Shown here: positions 1-40,497 of the stretch, piece after piece
Layout of the letters: each line of letters starts with the position of its first letter
How positions within the stretch are numbered: position 1 is the first letter of the stretch
Assembly (NCBI GenBank): GCA_964187785.1
Contig: OZ076409.1
Location: 64,606,001-64,670,000 of the forward strand
Length of the DNA: 64,000 bases
Direction of reading: 5' to 3'
Source of the DNA: Amphiscolops sp. MND2022
Lineage: Eukaryota
Notes under the pieces: model-generated
Databases searched by the model: none
What the model saw: the letters and a program-made list of their open reading frames with translations, nothing else
Told to the model about the DNA's origin: nothing
Program-made: the position numbers and the translations under genes

Positions 1-15
1 ATGGCTTGAAGTTCC

Positions 16-676
16 TTGCCAATCACAAAAAATTTATTGTTAGATTCAGTGGCAAGGTGTTGGATGTTATCAGAGATGGAAGAAGTCATCGCAAACATCC
101 GGTTAATGGCATCCGCATTTTCTTCACTCTGGCAAGTACCAAAAATGCCAGAGAGACCACAAGAGCCAGAGCCCATGGAAACGCCAGTTCCAAAAACGCC
201 AATGGCTCCAACCGCAACCGCAGCTAAGGGAAGAGCACGAGGAACACGGCTTGAGGGTGGAGACGGAGGCGGTAACGAAAGGAACCTGGCAACTTCCGGG
301 TGGAGGTGGGCTAACGAAGCATCAGAGGCGTTGACTTCTTTGTGAATTCTGCCCTGAGCCAGTGGGTGTCGAAGCCTCTAGTGCTGGTGTTCGTGAAGTT
401 CAAGTAACAATTGTACGTGGGCATGTCCCACATAGAATGAAGCGCCGTCAATATACGAGCTAAATCAGCTTTGAGACTCACAGAAAATTGAGGAAAGGGC
501 AACAAAAACTGGACGTTAATAAACTTCTCTGCCATGAGTATTTTACGGTCTTCATGAAAGATAATCCCTTTCTTCAGGGGGCCATCAGAATCGTCAAATT
601 CCGAAATGGGCTAGCAAAGAAATATGAACGAATTTGCTGTAAGAAGTGGTATGATCACAAAGAACGTCAGGAATGA
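16..676 (+). pseudogene. Degraded coding region of unknown family (first unit of the antisense cassette; probably begins left of the window)
   Basis: The Pro/Glu-rich ORF 16-345 overlaps a second frame that reads about 155 codons with only two stops (QPQLREEHEEHGLRV...HQRR*LLCEFCPEP...QYTS*ISFETHRKLRKGQQKLDVNKLLCHEYF...ERQE*). GC is higher than in the flanks. Confidence 0.35.
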
Positions 677-953
677 TCCATCCAAAAATGGTGATGGTCT
701 AAGCCGTAGGCGGTGAACTTGCGGAATGTTGATATTTACACCGGATATTGATCGTGCTATTGAAATTTATAACAAAGTAAGTGGATCAAGTAGATCATAT
801 ATTTGAAGTTATTGTTTCGAGCAAGTTTGCTATTCATTTGTTTATGCTTTTATTGTCTTGATTCATCAATTGTCTGAACATCTACTACCGTCTCAATCGA
901 TCTAAAGTGAGTCAAGTCTAATATGATATTCGAGTCTTTCAGTTGCAAAGTAA

Positions 954-1286
954 ATGAATTGTCCTTCGACAAAATTCGAAGAATTTGTTCTCTGGTGTTG
1001 TGCCGAGGGCACGGATGCGTCAAGAGGGGGGCGCCTCCTCTCTTTCAGCAAAGAGCCCCGGCCCGAGTGTAAGCAGTCTCTGCCCGCAGAGACTGGAACT
1101 TCGGAAGTCAAGACAGTGGCAGTCATTGTCGGAGTCGGAGTGATGGTGTTGATCACCCTGTTTCTTGGTTTTTGTTGCCGCACATGGCAGAAAAAGAAAG
1201 AAGAAAAGGAGCTAAGGAGAGCGACAAGAGAAAAATTGAAAAAAGAAAGGAGAAAGCCAGAAGGCAAGAAAAGATGGAAAAAATAA
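954..1286 (+). CDS. 110-aa single-pass membrane protein: Cys-containing N-terminus, TM helix, juxtamembrane CC, polybasic tail (FAST-like architecture)
   Basis: ATG-initiated ORF; hydrophobic VAVIVGVGVMVLITLFLGF is followed by CC and a K/R-rich tail (WQKKKEEKELRRATREKLKKERRK...). Confidence 0.55.
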   Translation: MNCPSTKFEEFVLWCCAEGTDASRGGRLLSFSKEPRPECKQSLPAETGTSEVKTVAVIVGVGVMVLITLFLGFCCRTWQKKKEEKELRRATREKLKKERRKPEGKKRWKK

Positions 1287-1814
1287 AGAAGAAAACGTAT
1301 TTGGAAACTACAGTCTAAAAACAGAAAAGGAGAAGTAAACAACGCACAGTAGAAGTGAAGAGTGAGAGTTAGATAATGTCGTACTATGCGGTGGCAGTCG
1401 TCCAGTATTATTCATGTTGAAGCATATTTAAAATCAACAGAGTCTGTCAGTCGTACATTTTAAAACTACAAGAAAAGCCAAAAAAACTGGTGTAAATTTG
1501 AGTGTGTTAGTTGTATAGATTAGTTGTCTGGTGGAAGTCAAAAAAAGACAAAAAAACAACAACAAAAAAGGAAAAGAAAAAGAAAAAAAACGTTGGCTGG
1601 AAGTCGACTTGAAAAAAAAAAGAAAAAAATCAAGATAGTGGAAGAAAAGAAAAAAAATGTTTGTGCGTTGAAGAGTCTTTTTCCGTAATTTGAGTCGAAT
1701 GTTGAGTGAAGAGGAGTCTGTCGGGTAGTAGTTCGAGCAAGATGTTGAATTGAAGTTGGAGAGAGAAAAGGAAATTCAGATAATTCAAAGTGTATTGTTG
1801 CGTTTCAGAGTACC

Positions 1815-2484
1815 ATGGAGCGATTTTTGCGAGAAGCCATCACGAGATATCTGACAGAAGGCACTTTAGATGAAACAGTGCTGGATTCCAGAGATAGGCG
1901 TGAGGCTTTCAAAAAGAACTGCAGGAACATGAAGTTCGAGAGAGGCGTGCTGTTACAAAGGGCGGAGGAATGACTTCTTGCCAATTCCAACACCGGAGCA
2001 AGTGGATAATTTACTCTATAAAATCCACATCAAGAACTATAAAGAAGGAGAAAGTGGTATTGGGAAGAAGCATTATCGGGGCCTGCAGCTACATGTGGAG
2101 GCACTGTCAAATGCTGGGTGGGCCTTTCCGATTGGTATGGGAGGACTGAAAGCAGTTGCGGAAGAGTAAGTGCATTTATTCAAAGATAAAAACTTATAGT
2201 AACAAAAGGGAAAAATTTTTTTTTGTTTTTTTTGTAAAAGAAAATGAAATAAGGAATGGTGTATATGGTTATCAGGTTTCTCAGGAATTGTCAGGAATGC
2301 TACTTCGCGAGTGAAGAAGGGAGGAAAGTACAGAGGTATTTGAGTTTCGTTGGAGCGGCGGATCGAACTCTGTAGTCAGTTCGATTATACCTGTGTATGG
2401 GAACCTCTATCATCTTCACGAAGTGGAGAAGTTCCTGTCATTCTCGAAGAACCAGGACGCAAAGAACCTTTGGGGGTCCTTGCG
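1815..2484 (+). pseudogene. 3'-truncated copy 1 of the HHCC-OTU gene (exons 1-2 and part of exon 3; 2-nt deletion in exon 1)
   Basis: Same sequence as 3162-3829, but GTGCTGTTAC replaces GTGCTGTGTTAC. It is cut by the repeat junction before the OTU Cys motif. Confidence 0.75.
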
Positions 2485-3161
2485 CATGGCAGAAAAAGAA
2501 AGAAGAAGAAAAGGAGCTAAGGAGAGCGACAAGAGAAAAATTGAAAAGAGAAAGGAGAAAGCCAGAAGGCAAGAAAAGATGGAAAAAATAAAGAAAAAAA
2601 GAAAACGGAGAAAAAGTCAAAGGTGCCAAAAACAGTGAAAAAGTCGTATTTGGAAACTACAGTCTAAAAACAGAAACGGAGAAGTAAACAACGCACAGTA
2701 GAAGTGAAGAGTGAGAGTTAGATAATGTCGTACTATGCGGTTGCAGTCGTCCAGTATTATTCATGTTAAAGCATATTTAAAGTCAACAGAGTCTGTCAGT
2801 CGTACATTTTAAAACTACAAGAAAAGCCAAAAAAACTGGTGTAAATTTGAGTGTGTTAGTTGTATAGATTAGTTGTCTGGTGGAAGTCAAAAAAAGACAA
2901 AAAAAACAACAACAAAAAAGGAAAAGAAAAAGAGAAAAAACGTTGGCTGGAAGTCGACTTGAAAAAAAAGAAAAAAATCAAGATAGTGGAAGAAAAGAAA
3001 AAAATGTTTGTGCGTTGAAGAGTCTTTTTCCGTAATTTGAGTCGAATGTTGAGTGAAGAGGAGTCTGACGGGTAGTAGTTCGAGCAAGATGTTGAATTGA
3101 AGTTGGAGAGAGAAAAGGAAATTCAGATAATTCAAAGTGTATTGTTGCGTTTCAGAGTACC

Positions 3162-3829
3162 ATGGAGCGATTTTTGCGAGAAGCCATCACGAGATATCTG
3201 ACAGAAGGCACTTTAGATGAAACAGTGCTGGATTCCAGAGATAAGCGTGAGGCTTTCAAAAAGAACTGCAGGAACATGAAGTTCGAGAGAGGCGTGCTGT
3301 GTTACAAAGGGCGGAGGAATGACTTCTTGCCAATTCCAACACCGGAGCAAGTGGATAATTTACTCTATAAAATCCACATCAAGAACTATAAAGAAGGAGA
3401 AAGTGGTATTGGGAAGAAGCATTATCGGGGCCTGCAGCTACATGTGGAGGCACTGTCAAATGCTGGGTGGGCCTTTCCGATTGGTATGGGAGGACTGAAA
3501 GCAGTTGCGGAAGAGTAAGTGCATTTATTCAAAGATAAAAACTTATTTTATAGTAACAAAAGGGAAAAATTTTTTTTTGTAAAAGAAAATGAAAGAAGGA
3601 ATGGTGTATATGGTTATCAGGTTTCTCAGGAATTGTCAGGAATGCTACTTCGCGAGTGAAGAAGGGAGGAAAGTACAGAGGTATTTGAGTTTCGTTGGAG
3701 CGGCGGATCGAACTCTGTAGTCAGTTCGATTATACCTGTGTATGGGAACCTCTATCATCTTCACGAAGTGGAGAAGTTCCTGTCATTCTCGAAGAACCAG
3801 GACGCAAAGAACCTTTGGGGGTCCTTGCG
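3162..3829 (+). pseudogene. 3'-truncated copy 2 of the HHCC-OTU gene (intact exon 1 at 3162-3514, exon 2, part of exon 3)
   Basis: The 118-aa ORF ends in a GTAAGT donor. Splicing to CAG|GTTTCTCAGG yields ...VAEEFLRNCQEC, which completes the HHCC motif. Confidence 0.75.
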
Positions 3830-4509
3830 CATGGCAGAAAAAGAAAGAAGAAGAAAAGGAGCTAAGGAGAGCGACAAGAGAAAAATTGAAAAGAGAAAGG
3901 AGAAAGCCAGAAGGCAAGAAAAGATGGAAAAAATAAAGAAAAAAAGAAAACGGAGAAAAAGTCAAAGGTGCCAAAAACAGTGAAAAAGTCGTATTTGGAA
4001 ACTACAGTCTAAAAACAGAAACGGAGAAGTAAACAACGCACAGTAGAAGTGAAGAGTGAGAGTTAGATAATGTCGTACTATGCGGTTGCAGTCGTCCAGT
4101 ATTATTCATGTTAAAGCATATTTAAAGTCAACAGAGTCTGTCAGTCGTACATTTTAAAACTACAAAAAAAGCCAAAAAAACTGGTGTAAATTTGAGTGTG
4201 TTAGTTGTATAGATTAGTTGTCTGGTGGAAGTCAAAAAAAAGACAAAAAAAACAACAACAAAAAAGGAAAAGAAAAAGAGAAAAAACGTTGGCTGGAAGT
4301 CGACTTGAAAAAAAAGAAAAAAAAATCAAGATAGTGGAAGAAAAGAAAAAAATGTTTGTGCGTTGAAGAGTCTTTTTCCGTACTTTGAGTCGAATGTTGA
4401 GTGAAGAGGAGTCTGACGGGTAGTAGTTCGAGCAAGATGTTGAATTGAAGTTGGAGAGAGAAAAGGAAATTCAGATAATTCAAAGTGTATTGTTGCGTTT
4501 CAGAGTACC

Positions 4510-5767
4510 ATGGAGCGATTTTTGCGAGAAGCCATCACGAGATATCTGACAGAAGGCACTTTAGATGAAACAGTGCTGGATTCGAGATAAGCGTGAGGCT
4601 TTCAAAAAGAACTGCAGGAACATGAAGTTCGAGAGAGGCGTGCTGTGTTACAAAGGGCGGAGGAATGACTTCTTGCCAATTCCAACACCGGAGCAAGTGG
4701 ATAATTTACTCTATAAAATCCATATCAACAACTATAAAGAAGGAGAAAGTGGTATTGGGAAGAAGCATTATCGGGGCCTGCAGCTACATGTGGAGGCACT
4801 GTCAAATGCTGGGTGGGCCTTTCCGATTGGTATGGGAGGACTGAAAGCAGTTGCGGAAGAGTAAGTGCATTTATTCAAAGATAAAAACTTATTTCATCGT
4901 AACAAAAGGGAAAAATTTTTTTCTTTTTTGTAAAAGAAAATGAAATAAGGAATGGTGTATATGGTTATCAGGTTTCTCAGGAATTGTCAGGAATGCTACT
5001 TCGCGAGTGAAGAAGGGAGGAAAGTACAGAGGTATTTGAGTTTCGTTGGAGCGGCGGATCGAACTCTGTAGTCAGTTCGATTATAACTGTGTATGGGAAC
5101 CTCTATCATCTCCACGAAGTGGAGAAGTTCCTGTCATTCTCGAAGAACCAGGACGCAAAGAACCTTTGGGGGTCCTTGCGGAGGTCGGAGGAGAATGCTT
5201 CTTCTCGAGCGTATACTATTTGCTCTGTGGGAGAAAATCTGGTGAGAGAATTGAGAATAGATGAAATGAGAAAAGAAAAAAAACAAAGGTAATCTGACAG
5301 ATGAATATTTTACATAGATCGAAAGAATGCGACGGCAAGTCGTAAGTGCAAGGCTCTACGCGTGGCTGCAACAAAGGTGATGCAGACGGTGGAGTTCAAG
5401 GATTATTGCAGGGAATCCCTTGGCATGGCACCCAACGACTTTATGGCTCAAGAGTGTGCGAAAGTGACGGCGAGCATCTCTGAGGCGGCCGTAAGTACCT
5501 GAAAATGGGCGCTAGAAGGAGCCAAGCGTTGTAAGGGGGGTGAGCATTCATTCATAATTTTAGATTCTAGCAACAGCATGGGTGTTACAAACGGACCTGC
5601 AAGTGTACTGGCAATATTGGAACTTGGGCGGGTGGATCCGGTACAAATACGGACCGAAAAGTTCCGGTACAGGGGCTAGCTTTCTGTGCCACGCCATCCA
5701 GGGCGGCGAACGGTTCCGGACCCGCTTCCACTGCGAGCCGTTGCCCCATTTTCCTGAGCCAGAGTGA
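4510..5767 (+). CDS. 5-exon gene: GIN/Ginger-type integrase HHCC zinc-binding domain fused to an OTU-like cysteine protease (about 319 aa if the 2-nt deletion near 4583 is repaired)
   Basis: Exons 4510-4860, 4972-5031, 5072-5241, 5318-5490 and 5564-5767 are all GT-AG with matching phases (intron 2 could alternatively be 5024-5075, also in frame). HHCC: LLYKIH...KHYRG...WAFP...EFLRNCQEC. OTU: EVGGECFFSSVYYLLCG...ALR...EAAILATAWVLQTDLQVY...FHCEPL. Confidence 0.75.
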
Positions 5768-6706
5768 GTAAACTTGAAAATTTACAGAGAATCCGAGAGA
5801 TTATTGCTGTTTCTAGAAAAATTGGCAAAAAATTAACTTTATAAAAGGTTGAAGACACCTGTGAGGGTGCGGAGCCCTGCTAGAGAACCGTGGGAAGAAG
5901 AGGAAGCTATGGGAGCATGCGGGACGAGCGCTTCAAGCGGATAAATGTAAGTAAAGATCATCTGTGTGGAAAAAAATCCAAAAAATAGTTAAAATATATA
6001 CGAAAAAGAGGTTGTAAAGTAAGAAAACAGTCAAAAAAATTAGAAAAAGGTATGGCGCGGACAGCTAGGATCCGTGAGAAGCCTCTAGAGGGGTTTAGGA
6101 CCCATTCCAAAGACCTGGGAGAGCAAAAAATAGATTTTTCGAAAAAATTGATATTTCCATAATATGGTCGAAAAGTGACCCAGAAAAATTTTTTTTTCAA
6201 TTTTTTCCGGATTTTTTGGGCTTAATCCAAAGTTTGGGCGAAAAAATGTCGGTCACCACTAGTTTTAGGGCAAAATTCGAAAAATTCGAAATTTGGGTCT
6301 ATTTAGGTAGTATACAGAAAAAGTGGTAATTTTGCAAAGAAAAGGTCCCATAAATAGTAGGAAGGGAAGGGTCGGGTGGATCGGAATATGAACCAGGATA
6401 ACGAGGGGAATCTGCAGGGCAAGTTTCAGGAGCAAAAAGTGCTCAGAAAGAAAAAAAAATCAATTGTTTGCTCAAAATAGGGTGAAAATGGAGATCGATG
6501 GATAGGAAAAATGAGGAAAATGGTGAAGAAAAGCAATTTCTCTGGACCCTAAACGGGCCAAAAGGGCTAAATAGGCGGCTAGAAAGGTCCTCCCATAGAG
6601 AAAAAGACCAAAGCAGTAGGCGATTAAAAGCAAAAATATGCAAAAAATAGACATAAACGGCGAAATTCTGAAAAAACGCTAAAATAAGGGAAAAGATGAA
6701 AAATGG

Positions 6707-9700
6707 TTATTTCCAGGGTTTAGACTGAAAAAATGAAGTACGACCAGGTTTAGGACGTAAACGTTGTTCACGCGTGCCCGATATAGGGACTGTAGTAACA
6801 GTCGCAGTCGTAGCCGTGGCGGGGGTAGCATCCGCGAAAACATGTTGTGAAGGGGGGAGGCTACGAAGATATGCATGGCAGTCCTGAATGACTGGTGTCG
6901 GAGTGACAGGTTTCGAGGGTGAACGTCGGTTAAACGACTTCTGAGCGAGCACTCGAGAAACTAATGAAGGCTTATACTTAGTAGGGGTAGTGGGGCGCGG
7001 TATACGAGACAGCGAAGATGAAGAATGAGAAGTGGGTGCGCCCGAAGAACAATGATAGCGAGGTAAGTTAGCAAGTTCTTCATTGGTAATAACGCCAGGC
7101 ATACCAGAGTATGGCGACGCAATTTGTGGAGAAGAAGGCGAGGATAATATCGGACGTGCACGATTGATAAGACTTTCAGAAAAACCAGAAAATTAAGAAG
7201 ATGAGCTAAGATCCGAATGATCATATATCTTAGGTCGCGTAGCAGTCGTCGTAACAGGAGGGACGTCCAAAGAGGGAGACAAAATAGGGGTAGGAAGGAT
7301 AGAAGTAGCTATTTCCAGTGGTGGAGCCTGAACGGTAGCTTTAAGAGGGGTTGAATGCATTACAGGTGTGCTTTGTGTGAAAATAGAGGTTGTATGGGCA
7401 AAAGGCAAAGTAGGCTCAGCTACTGTAAAAACATCAAAAGAATCAAACGTCGTATCGGGACTAGGGAAAAAGGAAGGATGAGGTTCAGAAAAGTGTTCCC
7501 TAGGGGGGGTGGAGTCACGAGAAGAGAGTATAAAAGAGTCGTGACGTTGATCGCTCACTGGGATGTTACGAACATCCTGTGTGAGAGAGACCTGACGCGG
7601 CGACGGGGCTTTATGGCAATTAGGCACCAGTCGTGGAAAATCAAAATTCTGAGGTGGGGGTAAAGTGTGAAGCGGCGGTGGCTGTGCCACTGGAAGAGCC
7701 TGCGGAACTACAGGAGGTGGGGAGGAGCCGGTGGAGCAGGTACAACCGGTGGTAATCGGCGGGGTTGATAACAAAAAACTACTGCCGGGGTGTCTGCAAT
7801 CTCATCCTCCGGAGTGAATGTTTTATCCTGTAGGAGGTTTGGTAGCGCGTCATCAAAAACTGAAGGCTCAGATACGCGGCGTGTGGAAGGATCAGGTTGA
7901 AAGTTAGAGGGGTTAATGGTAGAAAGATCTTCCACATTGTATTGAGGCTGAATTGGTCGCAGGCGGATTCTATGTACACATTGTGTGTAATTTAAACCTA
8001 CTTTACGAATGATGTAGTTTGAATGGGTAAGAACCGTTTCTACACAGTATAAGGGCAGCCATTTGGTTAAAGATTTCCCCCATATGGTCATTGACGTTAG
8101 ACAATTTTGGATTCAGAAGTAAACAAAAGTCGTGTTTTTTCAGAGGTAAAGCGGAAGCTTTACGATCATAGAAATGACGGTACTTGTTACATGCCGTGAT
8201 AGTAGCATCACGTGCGTGTGAAAAAACTTCATTCATCTTATCCTGTAGTGTACTCGTAAAGTCGTATTTAGTCTCTAACGTTTGGAGCATTTTATTATTA
8301 AACCGTAGATCAAGTTAAGATGTCGGTTGGCGTCCGTGAAAAAGAAAAGTAGGAGTACATCCGATTGAGGTGTGTTAGGTGGTATTATGTACGAAAACCG
8401 CTAAATCAACATAAGAATGCCAATCACGCTTGGCACGGTTTTCGTAAATTCCCAAATACTGTTTAAGAGACGCATGACAGCGCTCAATCGAACCCATTGT
8501 TTGAGGGTGCTTAACAGTCGCGTACTCCAGTTTGATTTCTAATAACCGCGAAAGTTCTGTCATAACACGGGCTGTAAAGGCAGTGCCCATGTCGGAAAGG
8601 ACAATTTTTGGCAAATACGACGATCTCATGAAAATGTGAAATAACTGCTTTGCCACATTCGGAGCACTTGCATTGCGCAACGAAGTTGCAAAGAGATATT
8701 TGCTAAAAGTATCTTTCGCTGTTAGAATGTGGGTAAAACCTCCTGAATCAGGCAATTTTCCAACTAAATCAATTTGGAGCATTTCACCAGGGAAATACTT
8801 GTCCGTTGCCAGGGATAACAGTGGTGGTTTTAGCGTCGCATGTTTTACTGGTTTAGTTTGAAGACAAGAAGAGCAATTTTTTACAATGTGAGTTAAAAAT
8901 TCAACAAAGTTCGGAAAGTAGAAATGTTTTCTAAAAAGTTCTGCCGTTTTCGCAATTCCTGGATGACCTGCATATTTGCTATTGTGTACTCGATAAAGTA
9001 ATTCCTCACGTAAGTGAGTGGGGACAACATACTGACGTATGAAGTCACGACCATTGTCGCTGAAAAACTTACGATAGAGTACACCGTTATGGTTTTCTAA
9101 GCGAGCAAAATGCTTTAGGTACTTGCGAAGTTCAGTATTCATGTATGGCGAAGGCGATGGTGGTCCATTCGCGATCCAGGCAAGAACTAATTTAATGTTC
9201 GTATCTTTTTGTTGTTCAAGTTGCAAATTTAAAGGGGTTAGTCGATCTGACATCGAGTTAGTCTAAGTGATCTAAAGGGTTGAAGGCATGCAATGCATTT
9301 AGTGATGGAAGAGAGGTTTTAAGGTCCTCTGAGGACATGAAAATTTCGCAGTCAGCTTTTAGCAAGTTTACCGAGTTATCAGGGACTTGCATTCACATGT
9401 TCAAATGGACATCAGCCACAGGAATTTTAGAATTAAATTTCAACTCAAGTTCCGTGTGCGGCTGGAAATGAATGCGGGACAGGTAATCAGCTGCCGCATT
9501 TGCTTTACCAGGAATGTGTCCTAGCAAAAAATTGAAATTGAGTACATGGTCTACGCAAGTCCAAAGACTCGAGGGAATGGTTTTGGCTTGAAAAAACCTA
9601 GTGAGGCTTTTATTGTCAGTAAGGACTAAAACTGGTTTAGTGGTGCCCCAAAGTATGTGGGCAAAAAAGTCAAAGGCAAAATGGACAGCTAGAAACTCTT

Positions 9701-11988
9701 TTGCATAAATAGAAAGCTTCAAGTAAGTGGGCGTGAAAATTTTAGAACCAAAAGAAACAGGAACGTACGTTTTGTACTGTTTTCCCGATTGATCCGTAGC
9801 ATAGTCTTCAATGAGTAGCACATAACCGGCAGCGTAAAAGCTAGCATCGGTCGAACTCACATATTGTGCGTCTGCTTCAGGCAATTTCAAAGCCAGTTGG
9901 CATGCCTGTTCTAAGTCTTTTCGCAAAGTAGCTATACACTTGTGATGTTCTTCGGTTAGTACTATATCATTTTCTTTTCGTAAAAGTTGGTAGAAAGGTA
10001 GCAACTATTCTCCAAGTTTCGGTATAAAAGAACGAAAATATTGGAAGAATCCAATAAATCGTCTTATTTGTTTTACAGTTTTCGGTACTTTCAGTGTTGA
10101 CAAAAATTCAGTGACTTTAGTTTTATTCGGTAGCACTCCTTCACTAGTTATTGTGTTCCCCAAAAATGTCATTTCTTTCAAGCCAAATTCACATTTGCCA
10201 GGTGTGAATTTAAGACCTGTTTTCTCTACACACTTGAAAATTGCTTCTAAATTAGTTGCAAATTCTTCAAACGTAGCGGCAGCAGTGCCTAAATCATCTA
10301 CATACTGAAAGCACTGGTCGGCAACAATACAAGGGTAGAGGTATTTGCGCATAAAAGAACTAAAGGCGCTAACTGAGCGACTCAGTCCTTGTGCTAAGCG
10401 TAAATATGCAAAAGTCCTTGAAAGAAAATTGAAAGCAAGCAGTTGCACAGACAAAGTATCTGCCATTTGTAAGACATGATATGCTTGGCTACAGTCTAGT
10501 TTGGCAAAGTACTTCTTTCCTGCAAGATGTGAATTCACATCGGCCAAAGTAGCTATCGGAAAATTGTGATTATCATAATCATGCCTTATTAAATGGTTAA
10601 TTCGTCGCAGATCTACTAATATTCGTAATTTTCCAGATGGTTTACGGAGGGCAAAAATGGGACTGGAGTATTTCGAGTAAGTCAAAGTTGTTATCACTCC
10701 CCAATATTGTAATAAAGCCAATTCCACTAAAACTTCGTCTCGATAGTGGATAGGGGTTGGCGGACCCTGTGTATACATAGGCTTGTCATTTTCAGGGGAC
10801 AGCTTGACTTTAAACTCTTCGTTTGCGCCAATATCAAGACGATGTCGTGCAAAAATATGATATTATTTTAACAAAAGAGCTTCAATCTGTTGTTTCTGCT
10901 CTTGATTGAAAACAGGGTTTTCCCATGGAAACTGAGCAAGAAATGATTCTCGATCCGCAAGGTTCTTCGCAGGATTTAATTTTTCCCGTTTTTTCAGTGC
11001 AACAATTTCGTCATAAATACGTTTTTGTATGCCCGTCAATGTTTCTGGATTAGGGCAATTCTCAGGTGTTGGAAACCAAAATTCATCGTTGGACGGATAA
11101 ACTTTGTGTTCCGAATCAGCAATAGGCCATTTATGCTCTTATTGAGATGGTCAGTCAAAATTTCAGGATTTACAGGTTGTAAATACTGTGCCTGAGAAGC
11201 TGTTAAAATCGTGACTTCAGCAACTTGAGCATTTTTCTGTACTGTTACTTGATGAGGCAAAAGATTTAGTATCCCTAAGGCAACTTGTTTCTTCGCGTCA
11301 AATTTTACAATGGCACTGGTTACACAAAGACCAGTTTGTTTTTCAAACCGTGGGTTAGGTTTCACGATTGCTACTGTTCCTTCAGGGAAGGATTCTGTAG
11401 AGAGAATACATTGGATTATTTCGCATGTGTTCGGTTTAACTGAGAGAGTTTGGGCAGCATGTAAGAAAAGATTTTTCTTAGTAGTTAGTGAACTGATTTT
11501 GCCACCTTTATGGACTCGTTCAGTTAGTTGTATGGTCATGTTCGGCAATTTTAGCGTTCGGGTTTTCGGATGAATCAAGATATCGTGTTTTTCAAAAAAC
11601 GGAAGACCTAAAATGGTCTGGTTCATCGTTTCCATGAGGATGAAAGTTTCGGTGAAGTTTCGTTCGCTATTTTGAAAGAGGCTTGAAAAGTTCCATGTGT
11701 GGTTATAGAGGCACCAGTGGCAACTTTTACTGTTGAAGGTTGAGGGTTATAGTTGGTTATACTTTTTGGACCTAAATGTTGAAGTTTATTAAAAATGGAA
11801 AGAGGCATGGCGCTTGAGAAAGCACCAGTATCTATAAGGGCTTTAACAGGAAAAGAAAAGTGAAGTGGTACAGAAAATAAAGAAGTGCGAGGCTTTGAGG
11901 ATAGTACGTTAATGAAGTTAGAAGGAGTACAGTTAGGAATATTAGATATATTAGAAGTATGGGCATTGTGTGGCTTACCTAGTTTTTT
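6707..11988 (-). pseudogene. pol: Gypsy pol (protease, RT, RNase H, integrase, long P/S/T-rich tail), disrupted
   Basis: ALIDTGA protease; RT LDCSQAY, LAQG, YVDD; RNase H TDAS, KEFLA, TDNK, AADYLSR; integrase H..GHPG..CSSC, QIDLVG, SDMG, IER. Split over ORFs by stops and frameshifts. Confidence 0.93.
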
Positions 11989-13230
11989 TGGTAGATGTTA
12001 GGCTGGTTGGCATCATATTGGGGTGTCCATGATTGTGGCATTTGGTTCATGGATATCATCTTGGTTTGTTGTTGCTGAAACTGCTGTGTGGGCACAAACT
12101 GGGCATTGGAGAATTGATTATATGGCAAGACTGGTGGGTAGGTTGGTTGTGGGCGAAACCAACATTGTGAGATCAGATGGCCAAATTTGTTGCAGTAGTT
12201 GCAGTACTTTTGTCCAGATTGGGCGAAGTATGGGTTGTTGTTGTTGTTGTTTTGCCAATTTTGTCCACGTGGTTGCCAATTTGGGTTTCGAGGTCGAAAG
12301 TTCTGGTTGTTATTGTTTTTCCAATTTTGTTGATTATTTTTCCAATTCTGCTGATTATTGTTATTGTTACGCCATTGTTGCTGATTATTTCCTCGAGGAC
12401 CAAAATTTTTGTTCCAGTTCTGACGATTTTTGTTGTTATTGTTGTTCCTGTTATTGTTGTTGTTTTGGGTATTGTTTTGGGTAGCTGCAAGTTGATTGAT
12501 TGTAGGTTGAAGAGTTTTATTTAACTCTTGAAGTTCTGTTGAGAGTTTTCCAGTTTCTTCTTTCAGTGTGTCCTGGGCTTTGGACAACTCGTGTATGCCA
12601 GTCAGTAGTTGTTTTGTTGAAAAGTTACTGACCTCGTTGAATGCTGTATCGTCGTCCTCAGGGTAGAGGCGGTCAACGATAAGACGGCTGGAAACCTTGG
12701 TGCATAGTTCATCTATTGCCATATCTTCGGGTTGAGTCATTAGGAAACGCTTCATCTTGATGGGCATTCCGTTGATGAATGCTTCACGAACTCTGCGAGT
12801 TCGCTCTTGAGCACGATTTTCAGCATTTACTGCAGGTCTTCCTCCTGCTGCAGCTCGGGCTTGAATGTCCGGGTACGCTTCGAGTGCCAGTCTTTGCAGC
12901 TCAGTGAGAAAGTCTTGTGGACTTTCGTCAGAGACTTTCATTTTGCGTGAATTGAAGAATTTTTTGCAACTGTATTCTTTGATCGTTTTGGTAACGATTT
13001 CGTAGGGCAGCTACGGCGGCGTCGTAGTCGTTTCGCACAGCAGCTTCTTGTTGGTCAAAGAAAGTTAGGGCACCTCCTTTAAGATGAAGGTGTAGGTACC
13101 GATGACGTTGGTCATTGGGAATGCCTGCAACTTGAGTGCAGCTCTCAAGTTGGCGGAGAAATTCGTCAAAGTTTTCTTTTTCGGTACCCTTGAAGGGTTG
13201 AAGATTTACAAAAGGTTGTATGGCAGCCAT
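11979..13230 (-). pseudogene. gag: Gypsy gag with N/Q-rich region and CCHC knuckle (one frameshift near 12950)
   Basis: ORFs 12928-13230 and 11979-12941; PFKG...F, ESPQDFLTELQRLA, REAFING, CNYCNKFGHLISQC. Confidence 0.9.
11982..11988 (-). promoter_or_regulatory. -1 ribosomal frameshift heptamer A AAA AAC at the gag/pol junction
   Basis: Gag ends CAA AAA AAC TAG. The -1 frame is open from here through LGKPHN...ALIDTGA. Confidence 0.8.
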
Positions 13231-13393
13231 AATTGTAGAATTTGAAAGTAGATTTTTAAGAAGAAATATTTATTGTGAAGATTTAGTATTTCAGGTGAGT
13301 TTTTTTACAGTACTTGCTGTTTCAGAGAGAAGAGATTTGAGCTGGTGGTGGATGGAAGAAAGAAAGTTCTAGCGAGCAAATTTGTGGAGAATA

Positions 13394-13406
13394 ACTCCTG
13401 TCACCA
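13394..13406 (-). promoter_or_regulatory. Primer binding site, tRNA-Leu-like
   Basis: TGGTGACAGGAGT lies immediately after the LTR end. It matches the recalled Leu PBS TGGTGTCAGGAGT at 12 of 13 positions. Confidence 0.65.
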
Positions 13407-13791
13407 TGTCAGTGACTGTGGTCGAGCGGCTGATCTGATTTTGTTTTAGAGACATTTTAGTTTTGTAGAACTTGTTTTATTCGAATGCTTAATTGGGTAA
13501 CTTCTCCTTTGCTCAATTCTCTAACTTTTAGAAAGAATACAATTTTGGGTAGAAAGATTTGTTTTATTGTAGCGATAAAGAAAGTTAGATTATGATGAGA
13601 TTAATTTAATTTAGTACAGTTTAGTTAGTACAACAAGTTCTCGGTCTGTCCGTTTTACTGATCCGCTCGTCCACCTTCTTCTTTGGTCCAGCGTGTTGAG
13701 TTGTGATTGGCTGGCATTGTGATTGGTTGTCATCTGTACTTCAACGAAATTTTGTTGTTAATGTACACTTGTCCATGGCGTTGTCATGACA
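13407..13791 (-). repeat. 5' LTR of the Gypsy element (385 bp)
   Basis: Minus strand begins TGTCATGACA and ends CACTGACA abutting the PBS; it contains AATAAA. The outer boundary is inferred from the terminal inverted repeat only. Confidence 0.7.
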
Positions 13792-14632
13792 AAATGATTT
13801 TTCAAACACCAATTTACAGTAGCTGATTTACTTACAGAACAAATAACGACAAAATTCCTTCGAAATGCCCACTTGGAGTGAATTAATGAGAAAATCGGCC
13901 TCTTCTGGACTAATTTTTCGGTAACAAAAAGTTTGCAAAAACTTTAATGAAAGTCTTCCAACAATTCCACAAAAGGAAAAAACGAAGATCAGATGTTACA
14001 GTGGAAACATTCCGACACACTTTTAAAGTAACTCACATAATCTGAGTTTTCAAAAATGCTTAAGAGTAAGAGTTTTCGGGAAAAAAATCATGTAAAAGTT
14101 CAGGAATCCAGTATAAAAAATTCAACGCAAACTTCCGCGAAAAGACATCCTCAGTGATTTTGAATGAAAGCATCCACATGTTGGACTACGCCATAATTTC
14201 AAACCGCAAAAAAATCTAATGACAGTTGATTTCTCTGAGGAAACATTTCAAATCGCAATAACTTTTTACATGATGAATTGAAACAACAGTCTGGAAGACA
14301 GCTGTCCGTAACAAAACATTCTTGTGACATACTTTGTATCTTTGATTCAGACTTTGGCTTCAGCACTTTTTCCGAAAACGCCCTCCTTGAAAGTTTACAC
14401 CACTAAATGATCACAAAAAGCTAATTTTCAACTTTTACTCCGTGAAAATATATTGGCGGAATTAGAACTGTTTTTGGCTGTTCACTTTTCAAGAAAGCGT
14501 TTTCATGGAGAGCTTTAACTATAATAGTTGAAGAGCGTTGTCAAAGCTACAAAAACGATCGGAAAAGGTTTTCTTTTAGACAAGTAGGTTTTGAGAAAAT
14601 GTGTAAAACGGTTCGAAACATTCCCTCGAAAC

Positions 14633-15179
14633 AAACAAGACGGGAATGTCTCAAGTCGGCGCCCACTTCTCGAACTACCGTCTCAATTGTCTCCGCTTTA
14701 GCAAAACGCAATACAGTCAGGATGTAACGTCAAAAATTCGAATAGTGTTGAAAAAATATATATTGGTGGACAGATACTGAGAAAACTTAACTTCAGACGG
14801 AAAATGAGGATTTTGAAACAGTCTCATAGTGCCGAAAAATCTGAAAGGGTGGACCCTTTGGGATTTTTTAACATCCATTTTGTTGCATAATATCAAAGAA
14901 GTGAAGGGATACATTATAAAATTTTCACAAAAAGTCTCAATGCCGAAAAAAAAATCGAAAGGAGGACCATTTAGTCTCGTCCGGTTTTGTATGTTACGTT
15001 AAGAAAGTAAAAAAGGGTGACCCTTTGCAATAACTTAGATGCGTTTCCCAGATACTCATTTAGTTGAACAAATTGAACAAAAATTTCGTCGCACTCGAGT
15101 GTCCTAAAGAAAAACAAAAAAACCTAAAAGACTGTGATAGTCGGGCTCGTTTATTTTATAAAAACGCCGACTAAAAAAA
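14633..15179 (+). mobile_element. Short non-autonomous HINE/Helentron-like element
   Basis: Head AAACAAGACGGGAA..AAGTCGGCGC; tail TAGTCG..CGCCGACTAAAAA (sub-terminal inverted repeat plus stem-loop); internal AAGGGGGACCCTTT-type motifs shared with many copies. Confidence 0.65.
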
Positions 15180-16810
15180 CAATCTCCTGAAAATACCATG
15201 CGATATCCCTTGTGAAACTTCGAGACAGTAGTAGTTCTACGAAAGTTAGTTCTATCACTGATCCATGAATGACTTTTTTCATGATACGAATATTGAGCTC
15301 TTCAACGTTTTGGTATACTAGTGTATTTTCGATGAAAAATTTGTACAGAAAACAAAATCGCAACAATTAGCTCTTCTCAAATCAATGTGAAGGAAGTAAT
15401 TTTTCGATTCGGACCAATGAGGGAAATCAAGTCAAAACAGACAAAAAAATCCTGCATTCATCGCCACTTTTGAGTCATCGTTTTTCGACATTGCAAGGAA
15501 AACGAGAAAATCTTCGGCACTAAAAAATTCCAAGCATAAATGTTTTCCGAGGGAAATCTTTTTTTTTAAATTCCTAGAGAAATGATTGCAAATTTCGGTA
15601 TTTGATGTTGATATGACAACAAAACTGTTATGAAATTAAAAATCAAAAGCTTTCGACTGAGATATCTATTCAAGAGGAATTGAGTGGAACAATGAAAAGA
15701 CGATTTTCAAAATCGTGATCGTTTTCAGTATTTCCGATCAAGTATTCAGCGAAATTAAACCAAGTTCCACCTAAATCATTTATAAAGGCGATTACGTTTC
15801 TATTGGGACCGATACCAGAGAAATTGAGTGAGGACGCACATTGTCAAAGTTCTACAAATATTGGAAAATTTGATCGCTCCTCAACACCAATAGCAAAAAG
15901 CAAAAATCGGCTCCACTCAATAACTCCAAGTATAATTATCTTATGACCCGAATTCTGTGCCCTATATATAAAGCTCCTACGAAAAACTTAATTTTTTGGT
16001 CGTGAGAGCTGCGATATCTAGTACTTCTTCGGAAAAACTTCCACGGTCGTAAGAGCGGGTTATCTTATGATAGTATTTGAAAATTGGAAAAGATTAAGTA
16101 GGAATATTTTGGATATTTGTAATTTGTATACACTGCTTCTTCTAAATATTCTCGATCAAGTTGAGAAGCATAGCGGTCACAGACCTTGTGAACTGAAACA
16201 ATCTTAGAATTGACACAACTAAAACAAAAGATTGGGTATTTATAATTATATTTCGCATAATTCAATCTATATATACATAGAAACTACAATAGGGTGAATT
16301 TTGGTGGGATTTAATGAAAAATAGGCAAAAACGAAAAACAGAAAACATGAGCACCTTCAATTGATATTTTTATTCCATGAAAAATATTAAAATTCAACGA
16401 ATGACCTTGAATAACATTTAGGAATTGAACAAAAAGAAGACAAACCTAACATTTCATCAGTGTACACACAAATTGTCACAACGGGTGAATTAGGATTACA
16501 AATTTATTAGACACTGTTCAAAGTGTCTTGAATCGAAAATGAGAGACGTAATTGCAGAAGAAATTCATTTTCGGAATGACATTCAGGAAACTATTTGATC
16601 TCCTGTGGTATTCGATTACACGTTGCTTTGATACGATATTCGCTTCCACTTCGGAGCCCAGACGAGTAATCGGAGAACTAAACAGTTATCGACTCCGAGT
16701 ATCAAATCCAAACGCCTCATAACTTTCCAAATCTTGGATTTTTTTGGAAACTGTTGAATAACAAATCTGCCTCGTCAAATTCAACAAACCCACGCCTTCA
16801 GAGTATCTAT

Positions 16811-19800
16811 CTACTTTTTGCGGAATCCGGGCAGTGCAAACCCTGACTTCGCAGTGACGTGGAACTTGGAAATGAGTTGAGAGAAACAAGATACCAGAGA
16901 GTCTCTGTCGTAAAGTGACACTTCAAAATGTAGGGGAACTTTACACGATTGCACCCATTGAGAAATATCGTCCTGAGAGACATGTCGTTGACACTTCTGG
17001 CTGCCATTGACTACTGGGTCTAACCCTGTCTTGTTGATCAAATCAAGTCGGTTGCCGAGAACCATGATAGGAAATGTTGTTTTGGACTGAAACAACAAAT
17101 GAGCATTAACTATCATGAATACATTGAACGTTTCTGGTTTTTTTTTCACTCTTCGCCAGGACTGTCTACCGGCTAAAAATCTATGTCGCTACTATCGCAC
17201 ATAAAAATCTATGTAAAGCGCCTTCTCTGTATTTAAAGTACCAATTTCTCTAAACTTTTCAAAATTTTGTAATTTCAATTAGAAATCGAGAGATTATTTG
17301 CTACAAAAAATTGAAGTTACAAAATTAAAATCACTTCATCCAAAATTTGCAAAACACTTACATCTTTTTTGATTTTGAGGTCAGCGAATAGATTTGTAGC
17401 CAATTGGAATGTGGAAGCGTCAGTCAAACTGTACAAGATAATGACAGCGTCAATATTTACAAACTCTGAGTTGGTGCGTGCGAGAAAGTACTTGGGCACG
17501 TCAGCTAAACTGTTCACTCCGTCCGTGTCAATCAGCCTCACACTGTCCTTCACACTGCTGCCCACTGTGCCTCCGTTGCTGCCACTGCTTCCTGCAACCT
17601 TCGAGGGAGCTTCCGGGATGAACTCAATCTCCAGCTCGTAGAAATCTTCCAAACTCATGCATGGCTCATAAACCTGTCACAAAACGATATCATATCAATA
17701 TATTCGTGTTTGACTCAGCTACACGTGTCGAGAGTTGAGTATCAACATTTCTCTATCCACTGCGTTTTTATTAAGTTGACTTCATAATTTGTATATATTT
17801 TCGGGACCTGACGATGATACAGATTATCGGAACATGTTGTGAATTAATGTTTCTCATCAATATCAATATTGCATATGGAAGCTTACGTTGAACTCACGAC
17901 AAAACTAGCCATAAAACTCATGTTATTATAAAAATTTGCAAGCCAAGAACGGCATAAGTCCGCGCCCCGCTCAAGCAAAACTACTTCAAAGTGTCAAGGA
18001 GCCTCTTTTGAAAAACTTCTCAATTTTGCAACGCCCAAGAAGAAACCTACTTGGCCAAAAAAGTTTCTCACCAGAAAAACAAAAAACCAAAGCGTTCTTT
18101 CCGGTTTCATCACCAGAAACATCAAAGAACCAACGCGATAACCCCGTGGGGAAGCCGAAGGGGGACCTTTGGTGAAATGAAGAAATTTTCCTTTTGCAAT
18201 ATCCATTTTTTAAAAAGTCTCACAGTTCCAAAAAAACACTCAAATCCTATTTTAATCGGAATATGTGTCAAAATTTGAATGGGTAGACCCTTCCGATCAA
18301 TTTGAATTTCGTAGAAATTTAGAATTTTATAGTCACTACGACCAGATTGAACAAGACGAGAACGTCTAAAGTCGGCGCTATATCTAAGGCTCAAAAAGCG
18401 CAAAACATTTTTGGAAAAAAACTTGAAATTTTTGAAAATTTTTCTCTTTCAGAAAATGTCGCACAGTGCCGAAAAAAAATCAAAAGGGGACCCTTTAGTC
18501 TCGGCCGGTTTTGTAGGTTACGTTAAAAAAGTAAAAACTGAAAGGAGGGACCCTTTGCACTAAGTTTGCCTTGGCCCCTTAGGTGGTTTCAGGATTGTTT
18601 CTAAAAAGTGGACCGATCATCGTGAGGATTGTAGTCTGAAGAAACAAGACGAGAACGTCTAAAGTCGGCGCCATATCTAAGGCTCAAAAAGCGCAAAACA
18701 TTTTTTTTGAAAAAAACTTGTAAATTTTGAAAAAAAAGTGTTTCAAAAAAAGACGCAGTGCCGAAAAAAATCCAAAGGGGGGACCCTTTAGGCACGTCCG
18801 GTTTTGTAGGTTTCCTTGAAAAAGTGAAAAAATGAAAAGGGGACCCTTTGGACTAAGTCTACCTTGGCCGGACTTGGCCTCAGGTGCTCAGGTGGTTTCA
18901 GGATTGTTCCTAAAAAGTGGACCGATCAGTGTGAGGATTGTAGTCTGAAGGAAAAACAAGCCGGGAACGGCCCAAGTCGGCGCCATATCTAAGGCTCAAA
19001 AACAGCAAAAGGACTTCCAAGTATTCTCTTCTACGGTACCGGAAAAACCCAAAAGTTGAACCGAATTGGCACACCAGAGGCGACACTTTGAAATTTTTTA
19101 TCCATTCTGTCGCAAATCATCAAAAAAAATTGGAGAGCACTTTTGGTGAAAAAAAATTTTTGAAAAAAAGTCTCGACCCTTTAGTCTCGTCCGGTTTTGT
19201 AGGTTACGTTAAAAAAGTAAAAAATGAAAAGGGGGACCCTTTGCACTAAGTTTGCCTTGGCCTTAGTGGTTTCAGGAGTTCCTCTAAAAAGTGGACCGAT
19301 CAGTTTGAGGTCTGTGGTCTGAAGAAAAAAGGTCAGTGCTATAGTCAGGCATTTTTCCTTAAAAGGAAAACGCGCCGACTCGACTAAAAACAAGACAGAA
19401 AGTAATATTCTAATCTTTCTAACTAAATCACCTCCTCCCGTGTCCAAATTGAATGTTTATATTTTTGAAATAAATGCAATGTTCTTAAATGAATGCTCTT
19501 ATTTTTACAACATTCAATTAAATAAACTTTCCTTTCCTTTCCTAAATCAGCCCTTTTTTCAAGAAAATGTGACCAGATATCAGGATAGTAAGTATATTTT
19601 CTAGATCACTACTTTACTGCAGGGATCACTGAAACATAAAACACCCGATGGCAAACGTTTAGAATTTTCGGCACTGCTCGATCTTTTCTGTGGCCAATTT
19701 GACCAAATAGTACCACTTGGAGTTTTCGTGATAATTTGTATCTGAAAGCAAGCCAAAAATTCTGGACAATATTGGATCCTTAATATAAATATAAACAACT

Positions 19801-19936
19801 ACAATATTAAATGAAAGCGACAACTTATACCAACATGACTGGAGCTAGAATGTGAAGAGTAGATGAGTTGGTGCACGAAACTCGTCTTCCCGGTGCCTTT
19901 GCCTCCAATGATGAGGATCCGATATGGCTTAGTCAT
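16811..19936 (-). CDS. NKIRAS: NF-kappaB inhibitor-interacting Ras-like GTPase (kappaB-Ras), 3 exons, about 229 aa
   Basis: Exons 19936-19835, 17673-17362 and 17086-16811 are all phase 0 and GT-AG. GGKGTGKT P-loop, HQLIY, EDFY, VRLIDTDG, VPKYF, VLGNRLD, EVS, C-terminal KSGFALPG and no CAAX, as in kappaB-Ras. Confidence 0.85.
17936..19390 (+). mobile_element. Head-to-tail cluster of HINE-like elements in NKIRAS intron 1
   Basis: Heads at about 17938, 18350, 18642 and 18955; a single CGCGCCGACT..AAAAA tail at 19371-19390. Confidence 0.7.
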
Positions 19937-21939
19937 CCCGTGAAGTTACAGCCCTACACAATCAAGTTAGATTGTCAGACTCAACGCGAAACAGCCGCTG
20001 TATGAACAGTCCAATTGCCTGAAACCAGCCTCAGCAGAATTCATCTGGCAAATGTTCATAGATCGTCGCCAAAACGGCAAAATCAGAGCGGCATTGATAA
20101 ATTCGCAAACTTCAAAGGCATTCCTATCTATAAAATATAAAAGCACATGAAAACTATTATGATAGCGTCACTACAAAAACTACGGGCAAAAGTAGAGTAA
20201 TACCATACAATAAATGGATCAACCATTGTGGTTGAAATTATCAAATTTTTAACATGTATCTTTACAAAACATGTAAAAACAATCAGAAATGCATCGTTGA
20301 AGCATAGTGAGCCTCGAACAAAAATTTCACTGAGGATTCTGAATTGAGAAAACATTTCATGCCTATGGTTTTACACATTTCAAGCAAATGATATTTTCAG
20401 TAAAACCTAAATTGAAGGTCATTTTTAGGCGTCAGAATGATAACCACAATGATAAAAACTTTCAATGAAAACATACTTGGTTAAGCCATTGGTTAAGGGT
20501 TGAAAGAACACAAACTATCATGTAATGCGCACTGCTCATTTTTATGTAAGTCGGCGCTACGTTCAGGGCTCAAAAAGAGCAAAATATTTGAACTACGTTG
20601 AGATAAAAAAGTTCTCATTATTCTGAGCCAAAAAACCAAAAGGGGACCAATATCGCTGTTTCAAATAAAAATTCCAAAAACATAGAGAGGCAGCCTTTGA
20701 CCTGGTCTAGTTTTACAATTTAAAACAGCCACATGCGCTTAAGTGTTTATTATGCCAGTATCTCGAATGGTTTCGGAGATATTAAAGGCCTTCTGGCTGG
20801 AAATTGGATTTCAAACTCAGCCGACCAAATTGTTCCACGAAATACGACAACGATGGAGCTTGCTCTGGTTGAACACTCGAGCACTAGTACATTGGCTCAG
20901 GCAACTTTTAGAGGAAAAGTTTTACTGCATCACAAATACTTTCGAAAATATAGACCTTAGGAAATCAAACATGCTGAAATGTCGCCTTTGATCAAGGAAC
21001 ATTTTCCGTCAAAAATTGCACCAAGGAGCAACGTTAGCGTGATGAAAGCTGCTCCACGAGAAGGCACCGGGATTATACCAATCATGCCAGTAGCTCGAAT
21101 GGTTCCGAAGATAATGGTATCCAATTGATTAGAAATCGGTATTCAGATTCGACCTATCAAGTTTTCTAACGGGAAAAGACTATGTTGGAACATCCGTCGA
21201 CAAAACGAAGCAAGTCGTGTCGATTTTTTTTTGAAAAAACGAAACGCGTACGCATCTTCGCCTAAAAATTAGCCCTGCGCAGGATTCGAACACACGTACT
21301 ACTGCTTTCAAGAACGAAGTAAGGAAAAGTCGTGTTTCACAACTGCAGGAAACAAAATGAATTCAATTAAATTCAGAAAAACTATCACTCTGTGATCTGA
21401 AAAAAGTGCTCCATGCGCTTTCTACAAAGGCGCCAACTGACTTTTCAACATTGAATGCCTTCATTAAACTCTCTTAAAATGCGTTCTATTGCTTCTCCTT
21501 TTCTTAAATTAGTTTTGTTCGGGATTAAATTAGGTTGGTCTTATTGAACAACCTGGGAAAATTTGCAAAAAACATGTTCTCAAACTAATACTTTCCTGAG
21601 AGAAATATCGCCCTCGCGGCTGAATAATTTCACTGCAACTTTTCCCAGAAATTGTATATTCATCAATTCCACATAACTTCTAATAAGATCAATTTATACA
21701 ATTTTCCAAAAACCGACGAATGTGTTTTTAGTCAACGCTTTCGACAAAAAACGCAGGATATAGTAGTCGCTTTTCCGAAAACTAAGAACTGACACATTTA
21801 TACAAATTCGATAACTCGTAACTAAGTTGCTCCCGCCACTTGGTCAAGTGGTTACAACGGGTGCGACAAAAATTGGAAATCAGGTGTGTACATTTGTTTG
21901 CAAAAGTCGAGGGAAACCAGAATGCCTATTTCAGGTTTT

Positions 21940-39000: not shown

Positions 39001-39039
39001 GAACAATTAGCTAAGAGAAACAGATTATTGTTTACACAT

Positions 39040-40457: not shown

Positions 40458-40497
40458 AGAAGAAGAAGAAGAAGAAGAAGAAGAAGAAGAAGAAGAA
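40458..40497 (+). repeat. (GAA)n microsatellite
   Basis: Perfect trinucleotide run. Confidence 0.95.

Follow-up and report, generated by a model that had tools for sequence, protein, structure and literature searches.

Retrotransposons with long terminal repeats (LTRs) are believed to shed introns and to possess few accessory genes. Antisense open reading frames (ORFs) in plant Gypsy elements, shared extra ORFs in rotifers, and OTU domains in Ginger1, Helentrons and the PolB of adintoviruses are known already. Ginger1 elements have terminal inverted repeats (TIRs) of 40-270 bp and a 4-bp CCGG/CCGT target-site duplication (TSD) (PMC2836005); here and below, statements on published systems refer to the parts of the cited texts available to us. 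We found no prior description of a stand-alone antisense OTU gene in an LTR retrotransposon, with Repbase, the supplements of PMC13524379 and most subscription papers lying outside the scope of the search. Here we analyse a 64,000-nucleotide stretch of Amphiscolops sp. MND2022 (the window, C1:64606001-64670000 of a 1.07-Gb assembly), which holds most of one Ty3/Gypsy element of 16,555 bp on the minus strand. Between its pol and env genes lies a gene on the opposite strand, divided into exons, whose product joins an integrase-N-terminal (H2C2) domain to an OTU domain.

The element and its antisense gene

The ends of the element within the window and the exons of the gene are as follows.

13792-13796, no strand: TSD AAATG, a pentamer that flanks the outer end of both LTRs
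13407-13791, minus strand: 5' LTR with TG..CA ends, two substitutions and one gap from the 3' LTR
13389-13406, minus strand: primer-binding site, starting TGG and adjoining the LTR
4510-4860, plus strand: exon A, integrase-N-terminal-like domain with both His, frameshifted in the window copy, with an acceptor-like AG just before the ATG
4972-5241, plus strand: exon B, zinc-finger CxxC, linker and OTU catalytic Cys loop (GGEC)
5318-5490, plus strand: exon C, helical part of the OTU domain
5564-5763, plus strand: exon D, beta strands of the OTU domain with the catalytic His (FHCEP)
5848-5944, plus strand: exon E, predicted from the conservation of a fourth donor and of a peptide

An earlier note on this DNA had recognised the minus-strand Gypsy element with its 5' LTR, adjoining primer-binding site and gag-pol ending at 6707, and had seen no LTR copy between that point and base 1; both observations were confirmed, the region 1-6707 being free of any LTR copy. 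Its proposal of a single element of more than 13.8 kb is borne out by a second LTR (C1:64603237-64603622, 99.2% identical), located 2.4 kb before base 1, and by the TSD matching 13792-13796. A polypurine tract sits at the expected place on the minus strand, after env and before the 3' LTR and its AAATG.

An LTR search of the genome, in which 40 matches were scored of 101 candidates, gave 17 pairs and six singles. The gene is enclosed by 16 of the 17 pairs, the exception being a 3.7-kb remnant, and the full-length DNA matches of at least 93% identity (n = 17) all lie beside a family LTR, 16 of them between two. The spliced OTU-type gene and a small transmembrane (TM) gene thus belong to the element, as the note had supposed. 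The TSD and the 16 matching copies reject an assembly join as the source of the element, and an independent host gene or single-copy locus is rejected by the multi-copy, LTR-enclosed arrangement. TG..CA ends were present in all nine LTR pairs examined; eight show 0-2 substitutions and a clean TSD of 5 bp, and the ninth shows seven substitutions. The family has therefore moved recently.

Splice models recovered a four-exon chain in 48 of 52 loci. Sites fall at the same position in most of these 48 models (donor 1 in 39, acceptor 3 in 41, donor 4 in 41), intron phases are constant, and intron lengths are mostly 60-130 nt. A fifth exon follows exon D, and an acceptor-like AG stands ahead of the ATG in most loci. 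Among the models with all seven sites (n = 32), 23 read stop-free through exons A-D for 309-332 aa, and the predicted full product is 340-365 aa. These 23 proteins are as little as 24% identical (median 37%), and both His of the H2C2 domain and the His and Glu of FHCEP are retained in 23/23, the CxxC and the catalytic Cys in 22/23 each.

Antisense-frame dN/dS was about 0.13, lying at 0.10-0.17 in four of five unsaturated pairs and at 0.40 in the fifth, and introns are 53-79% identical where exons are 76-90% identical. No long sense ORF overlapping the gene was found, so the constraint comes from the antisense frame, which is under purifying selection. Since GT-AG sites are conserved on a strand that the genomic RNA cannot splice, an antisense transcript is to be expected, and we infer that the gene is transcribed opposite to the genomic RNA and spliced.

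Further features of the element are listed here.

11979-13269, minus strand: gag, one zinc knuckle and an Asn/Gln-rich stretch, frameshifted in the window copy
6707-11997, minus strand: pol, with protease, reverse transcriptase (RT), RNase H, integrase and a long Pro/Thr-rich tail, interrupted in the window copy
1-610, minus (sense) strand: 5' part of env, interrupted, without 266 bp at its 5' end, running on about 1.5 kb upstream of the window
954-1286, plus strand: single-pass TM gene, with a four-Cys ectodomain (C..CC-x2-GT..C), TM helix and basic tail
about 593-716, plus strand: remnant of a frame of about 99 codons that occurs only in close families, a doubtful gene
1183-5180, plus strand: tandem triplication (units 1183-2484, 2485-3829 and 3830-5180), each unit spanning exon A together with the TM tail and the greater part of exon B

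The layout is LTR-gag-pol-antisense block-env-LTR, with the antisense genes in a pol-env gap of 3.7 kb. The domain order protease-RT-RNase H-integrase after gag is that of errantivirus-like Ty3/Gypsy elements, and by its layout the element is errantivirus-like in the sense of PMC13524379. An RT search returned no named relative among the 120 hits listed. A dUTPase-like stretch between protease and RT (window 11036-11746, minus strand; pol residues 178-276) is weak (E 0.008-0.016, below cut-off). The pol tail after the integrase (window 6707-8000, minus strand) comprises about 430 aa rich in Pro, Thr and Ser, has no Pfam match and is poorly conserved across families.

The description of the element as giant and Burro-like does not hold: the longest other LTR pairs span about 14.2 kb, which is the usual family length, and the gag, pol and env ORFs are ordinary. 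The window copy is longer because the 1.35-kb unit is triplicated (1302, 1345 and 1351 bp); the other family copies compared (n = 9) hold a single unit. An assembly artefact is unlikely here, as the units differ by 9-17 substitutions. Exon A is frameshifted in all three units and the first two stop before the catalytic Cys; gag, pol and env of the window copy are broken as well. Elsewhere in the family, env is intact in four of six full-length copies and pol is stop-free over at least 1,569 codons in five of nine, within the stretch fetched. In other families, too, the antisense block is found duplicated in tandem (L034, L063, L071, L073 and several paired matches), with periods of about 1.1-3.8 kb; one BEL copy has a 1.8-kb duplication in pol, so tandem duplication may not be specific to the block.

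Three antisense coding units had been proposed. Two are conserved; the third, described as a degraded plus-strand ORF, occurs only in close families and is either a shadow of env or the remnant listed above. The note had overlooked env itself, whose start occupies bases 1-610 on the sense strand. The env product (about 740 aa) shows a signal peptide, a basic cleavage site, a hydrophobic fusion peptide, a heptad region and a TM anchor. Sequence searches of Pfam and PDB with env returned nothing significant, and the nearest Atlas clusters (score 0.94) carry Baculo_F (12-23% of members) or Fusion_gly (32%). From this feature similarity and the visible motifs, env is a candidate F-type class I fusion protein. 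The suggestion that the antisense TM protein is the element's fusogen was accordingly rejected in favour of env. A separate locus (L111:2-905) has an OTU-carrying BEL element inserted in or beside the F-type env of a Gypsy element.

Upstream of exon A, 31 of 45 Gypsy-linked models and none of three Polinton copies show a CC-x2-GT motif flanked by Cys and followed by a TM helix and basic tail; two spurious motif hits were dropped, and helix and basic patch were judged by eye with a hydropathy window. In the second of two Gypsy clades (clade II) the TM forms begin with a signal-peptide-like stretch, and none begins MG. As a guess, the product could be a small surface protein that blocks a receptor or opposes a membrane restriction factor.

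Two compositional observations of the note were reproduced. Plus-strand A+G is 0.62-0.65 over 950-8000, from the pol tail into the block, against 0.52 in the pol core and flank, and short interspersed repeats are absent from 1-13.8 kb, beginning only at 14633 among the 20 largest of 43 families. Neither was accepted as proof of unity; the absence of short repeats follows from the youth of the element.

Domain identity and carriers of the gene

A Pfam OTU search of the genome gave 14 loci, five of which are an intronless ORF of about 295 aa with the same layout as the spliced gene. This form is carried by BEL elements, and one BEL-borne homologue passes the Pfam OTU cut-off (27.5 against 23.3). 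A profile of the 23 spliced proteins scored 27.7 bits against the BEL-borne protein, in a match covering profile positions 1-272 of 314; the highest score among 310 decoys was 6.6. The alignment places the catalytic Cys of the spliced type on the Cys of GDGNC in the homologue. Profile-profile comparison with the BEL protein gave 83% and E 9e-6 for one alignment (A2) and a probability of 2% for another (A7).

For fold searches we modelled one copy with its in-frame introns translated along with the exons; the model has pLDDT 65, the low values lying mostly in the intron parts. In the VIA search against 48,161 chains the top 24 rows are all OTU-fold (Z 8.6-5.5), with OTUD3 the best (Z 8.6, rmsd 3.6 A, 121 aligned) and OTUD1 and nairovirus OTUs also among the top; the top Foldseek rows are likewise all OTU. 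Model residues 2-115 match foamy-virus and Ty3 integrase (Z 5.2 and 4.6), and an exon-A profile matches fish Integrase_H2C2-repeat proteins (E about 5e-7). Exons A-D run from the finger directly into the OTU domain, with no DDE core and no GPY/F. Fold, catalytic Cys, His and polarising acid are those of a deubiquitinase-like OTU protein, which may cleave ubiquitin or ubiquitin-like conjugates. We hold the reality of the gene and its domain identity to be well supported, with little room for doubt.

The fish proteins (P0070, P0071, P0085, P0092, P0098) combine three Integrase_H2C2 repeats with THAP domains and a D-Tyr-tRNA deacylase-like domain; they too use this integrase N-terminus without a DDE core. 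Other OTU domains in the genome lie in frames of 2,200-2,700 codons (L077, L083, L084), probably Helentron-type RepHel proteins. OTU ORFs also occur on two small contigs (L075 and L086, on C1676 and C1381) that look compositionally unlike the rest and possibly derive from a symbiont or contaminant.

Exon A has 148 genome matches, with identity falling to about 33%. Exon D from a distant family has 150, partly overlapping the exon A set, all 150 scored candidates having passed. Across identity tiers, 46 homologous loci were sampled. Gypsy env and/or pol lies on the opposite strand in 43; the other three consist of integrase fragments only, an orphan fragment and a Polinton-like element. The linkage of cassette and Gypsy claimed earlier therefore stands for 43 of 46 loci and is not exclusive, since the gene is also found in Polinton-like and BEL/Pao elements without Gypsy. 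The earlier note had named occurrence of the cassette away from this Gypsy as evidence against a single element; the gene outside Gypsy extends the finding and does not undo it.

The Gypsy carriers form two clades, and within the first, clade I, the OTU tree has the same branching as those of integrase and env (20 Gypsy rows, 19 for env). The Polinton-like carrier is 17-18 kb long, with TIRs of about 145 bp, AGTAGT ends, 6-bp TSDs and an rve integrase (two copies with both ends), and holds the same five-exon gene 400 bp inside one end. About seven near-identical matches exist, of which four were fetched. Its gene groups with Gypsy clade I (94/99) and shares the same exon E type, and Gypsy monophyly was not rejected (AU p 0.218). 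Judged by eye from their motifs, further ORFs of this element are candidates for PolB, capsids, ATPase and protease; they had no Pfam, PHROG or PDB hit. In sequence searches of these three databases with cassette exons, env and Polinton ORFs, only the Polinton integrase was significant. A tRNA-like sequence lies inside both TIRs (L030:5760-5830), and ARAGORN did not call a tRNA gene at the Polinton end. A 703-bp tandem repeat of variable copy number (L030:2623-3649) separates the PolB-like ORF from the OTU gene.

The intronless BEL-type form has 113 matches and was antisense between integrase and 3' LTR in all nine loci fetched, which belong to several families and show LTRs, TSD, DUF1759, Peptidase_A17, rve and DUF5641. 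Beyond the host genome, the databases gave 59 short hits that contain the GG[LI] motif; 38 of them break off six residues past it, where intron 1 stops the frame, and two outside hits tested had no match above 35% in the host genome; the spliced gene therefore exists in other genomes. An exon A search among longer proteins gave no homologue, and no full-length spliced product was among 107 profile hits. Metagenome and viral scans with exon D gave four and three short matches, judged to be chance. The distribution suggests that the gene has moved between element classes, and related genes in Gypsy, BEL/Pao and Polinton elements suggest a shared tool against host defences.

Proposed function and rival explanations

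Two further patterns bear on function. Certain clade II pairs with env and pol 94-97% identical in DNA have OTU proteins only 52-61% identical, and pairs at 87-92% have OTU proteins at 44-46%; the divergent OTU block has sharp edges, and clade I pairs are without such contrast. The contrast was seen in five of 11 pairs, which points to exchange of OTU alleles between near-identical backbones, as expected of an arms-race locus. Separately, env has lost 0.8-2.0 kb in nine of 16 LTR-enclosed window-family copies, in three breakpoint classes (4, 4, 1), and all nine keep both antisense genes. The LTRs are identical in the three env-deleted copies checked.

On balance we favour, by a modest margin over even, the reading that an errantivirus-like Gypsy clade carries a selected antisense accessory module between pol and env, the product of which counters host restriction. 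The module would be transcribed from the strand opposite the genomic RNA and then spliced; its introns would persist because it is the sense RNA that is reverse-transcribed, and there they are no introns. The spliced mRNA would yield a nuclear protein, exon E of clade II resembling, by eye, a bipartite nuclear localisation signal. This product would keep both ends of a Ginger1-type transposase, the H2C2 domain and the OTU protease, without the DDE core. The integrase-like zinc domain may bring the cysteine protease to the element's integrase, to other element proteins or to chromatin, where removal of ubiquitin or a ubiquitin-like tag would undo ubiquitin-dependent host degradation or silencing. 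A Ginger1-like, DDE-less accessory deubiquitinase is in our judgement the best reading, and its Ginger1 origin is one we infer from the domain pair; that it acts in counter-defence as a nuclear OTU protease has about an even chance of being right. A broader scenario falls somewhat short of that and is put forward tentatively: a core-less transposase turned into a portable, zinc-finger-targeted deubiquitinase, recruited by Gypsy, BEL/Pao and Polinton, expressed antisense in LTR elements, mattering more than env to amplification, and with alleles swapped as part of an arms race against a host pathway of silencing or restriction that depends on ubiquitin.

Several results weigh against this reading. 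Spliced-type exons, single or read through, had no Pfam OTU (PF02338) or Integrase_H2C2 match, and by profile had no significant match in PDB, the best later one being OTUD5 at only E 0.045. A first structure model (exons B-D, from a fragment alignment without BEL-type rows) had pLDDT 53 and no fold match; the second has the weaknesses of pLDDT 65 and Foldseek E of 0.015 or worse, and the five BEL-type rows in its alignment may have biased it in favour of an OTU fold. The Cys loop of the spliced type is without the D of what we take to be the usual motif, GDGNC. The dN/dS estimate comes from five pairs only, the allele-contrast pairs were hand-picked from trees, and no autonomous Ginger1 donor was seen in the 46 spliced-type and nine intronless loci, the only places looked at.

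The gene might instead serve the element as a self-regulator, its H2C2 domain binding or poisoning integrase multimers or LTR ends to limit copy number and its OTU domain processing or stabilising element proteins, as in proposals for antisense proteins of complex retroviruses and of plant Retand/Grande elements. The match of the N-terminal domain to integrase N-termini and fish H2C2-repeat proteins, the antisense position and the regulatory role proposed for plant antisense ORFs (PMC11963269, PMC7264820) agree with this. A host target fits better with homologues in three unrelated element types whose integrases are very different, and with alleles that swap freely among backbones of near-identical integrase, and we regard self-regulation as unlikely. 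The TM and OTU products might also be an allele-specific exclusion or addiction pair, barring superinfection by, or incompatible with, elements of another allele, which would maintain many alleles in the population. Both genes do lie within one swapped block between conserved env and pol, and env-less copies keep both; the Polinton copies, however, have the OTU gene without the TM motif, none was seen in BEL contexts, and we give such a pair little credence.

Slightly less credible still is an OTU fold that is catalytically dead, used as a scaffold, or directed at a substrate other than ubiquitin. The divergent Cys loop and the scores below all sequence-profile thresholds would suit it, whereas the Cys (22/23), the His (23/23) and an acidic residue two after the His (23/23) are retained. 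Least probable in our estimate is a passive hitch-hiker, a non-autonomous Ginger1 derivative inserted in several elements and of use to itself or to nobody. Ginger1 transposases have H2C2 and OTU domains and 1-4 introns (PMC2836005), three classes of element hold the gene, the 46 loci include an orphan and a rearranged one, and tandem duplication is frequent. Yet position and orientation are constant across families with env only about 40% identical, clade I branching is the same for OTU, integrase and env, the gene is under purifying selection, it has no DDE core, and it stays when env is lost.

If the portable counter-defence reading is true, an animal retrotransposon would encode an enzyme against silencing, and the gene would indicate which host pathway is under attack; to our knowledge, little is known of the proteins by which animal transposons counter host defence. 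In a large clade, an antisense gene with several introns and a recognisable enzyme fold has been retained; it is selected, cross-class and hypervariable among close relatives. Unlike most extra ORFs, this one has an activity that can be tested, and its substrate would identify the pathway by which the host holds these elements in check. Surveys limited to sense gag, pol and env ORFs miss a complex-retrovirus-like layer of genes in invertebrate elements.

The remainder of the window holds an abundant short interspersed repeat family with inverted subterminal motifs (14633-25440 and 56900-59700; the HINE-like elements of the earlier note), fragments of non-LTR retrotransposon RT ORFs (34249-36198 and 38691-42645) and a run of N near 54780-55000. 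A degraded BEL/Pao-like element lies at 43700-50567, with a 162-bp direct repeat 6.7 kb apart, and the start of a further Gypsy gag-pol frame at 62085-64000 (plus strand, 638 codons) is open at the window end.

Comparison with known systems

Comparison with the errantiviruses that carry F-type env (Chary and Hayashi, PMC13524379) shows the same succession of LTRs, primer-binding site, gag, pol and an F-like env, and many near-identical recent copies. The window family differs in the 3.7 kb between pol and env with its antisense spliced genes; the words 'antisense' and 'OTU' are absent from the main text of PMC13524379, the supplements of which may list the family. Burro (reviewed in PMC6431247) is likewise a large Gypsy element with env and ubiquitin-related extra domains, but it exceeds 30 kb, has an ORF1 of about 4,900 aa and places env between gag and pol, against 14.2 kb for the window family.

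Ginger1 (Bao et al., PMC2836005) resembles the window gene in its H2C2 finger with an N-terminal extension, its C-terminal OTU domain and its GT-AG introns. In the window-type gene the stretch before the finger, where Ginger1 has a YPYY motif, is homologous to fish H2C2-repeat proteins and to an LTR-element integrase (E 5e-7 to 8e-4), and the motif is not conserved in the alignment examined. In contrast to Ginger1, the window-type gene is without DDE core or GPY/F, occurs inside LTR elements, where it is antisense, and at one end of a Polinton-like element, and is not a free TIR-bounded transposon in the sampled loci. Ginger1-type TIRs around the gene were searched for at the window locus only, where the 25 longest of 48 inverted pairs include none within 1-13.8 kb.

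Plant Retand, Grande and RIRE2 elements (PMC11963269, PMC7264820) share the long region from pol to 3' LTR, conserved antisense ORFs with a proposed promoter of their own, and tandem repeats. They differ in being plant elements without env, whose ORFs have TRP28 or unknown domains; 'intron', 'protease' and 'OTU' are absent from the available text of PMC11963269. The ORF3s of bdelloid rotifers (PMC5408684) are similar in that one accessory gene type is common to unrelated element classes, and differ in being GDSL, DEDDy, CC or TM ORFs, with no mention of 'OTU' or 'intron' in the available text.

The small TM protein recalls the sORF2/FAST-like proteins (PMC11952523), which are also small, with a single TM helix and a juxtamembrane basic patch. 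The sORF2 candidates are all sense, were picked by N-myristoylation and come from env-less elements, whereas the window protein is antisense, has no MG start and has a four-Cys ectodomain; non-myristoylated sORF2/FAST variants exist (PMC11952523). Finally, the OTU domains of Helentrons (PMC6431247), of adintovirus PolB (PMC8502044) and of nairoviruses, the vOTU being among the fold hits, are similarly OTU proteases of mobile elements or viruses. Those are domains of replication polyproteins, whereas here the OTU protease is predicted from a stand-alone, spliced, antisense gene that joins it to an integrase zinc domain.

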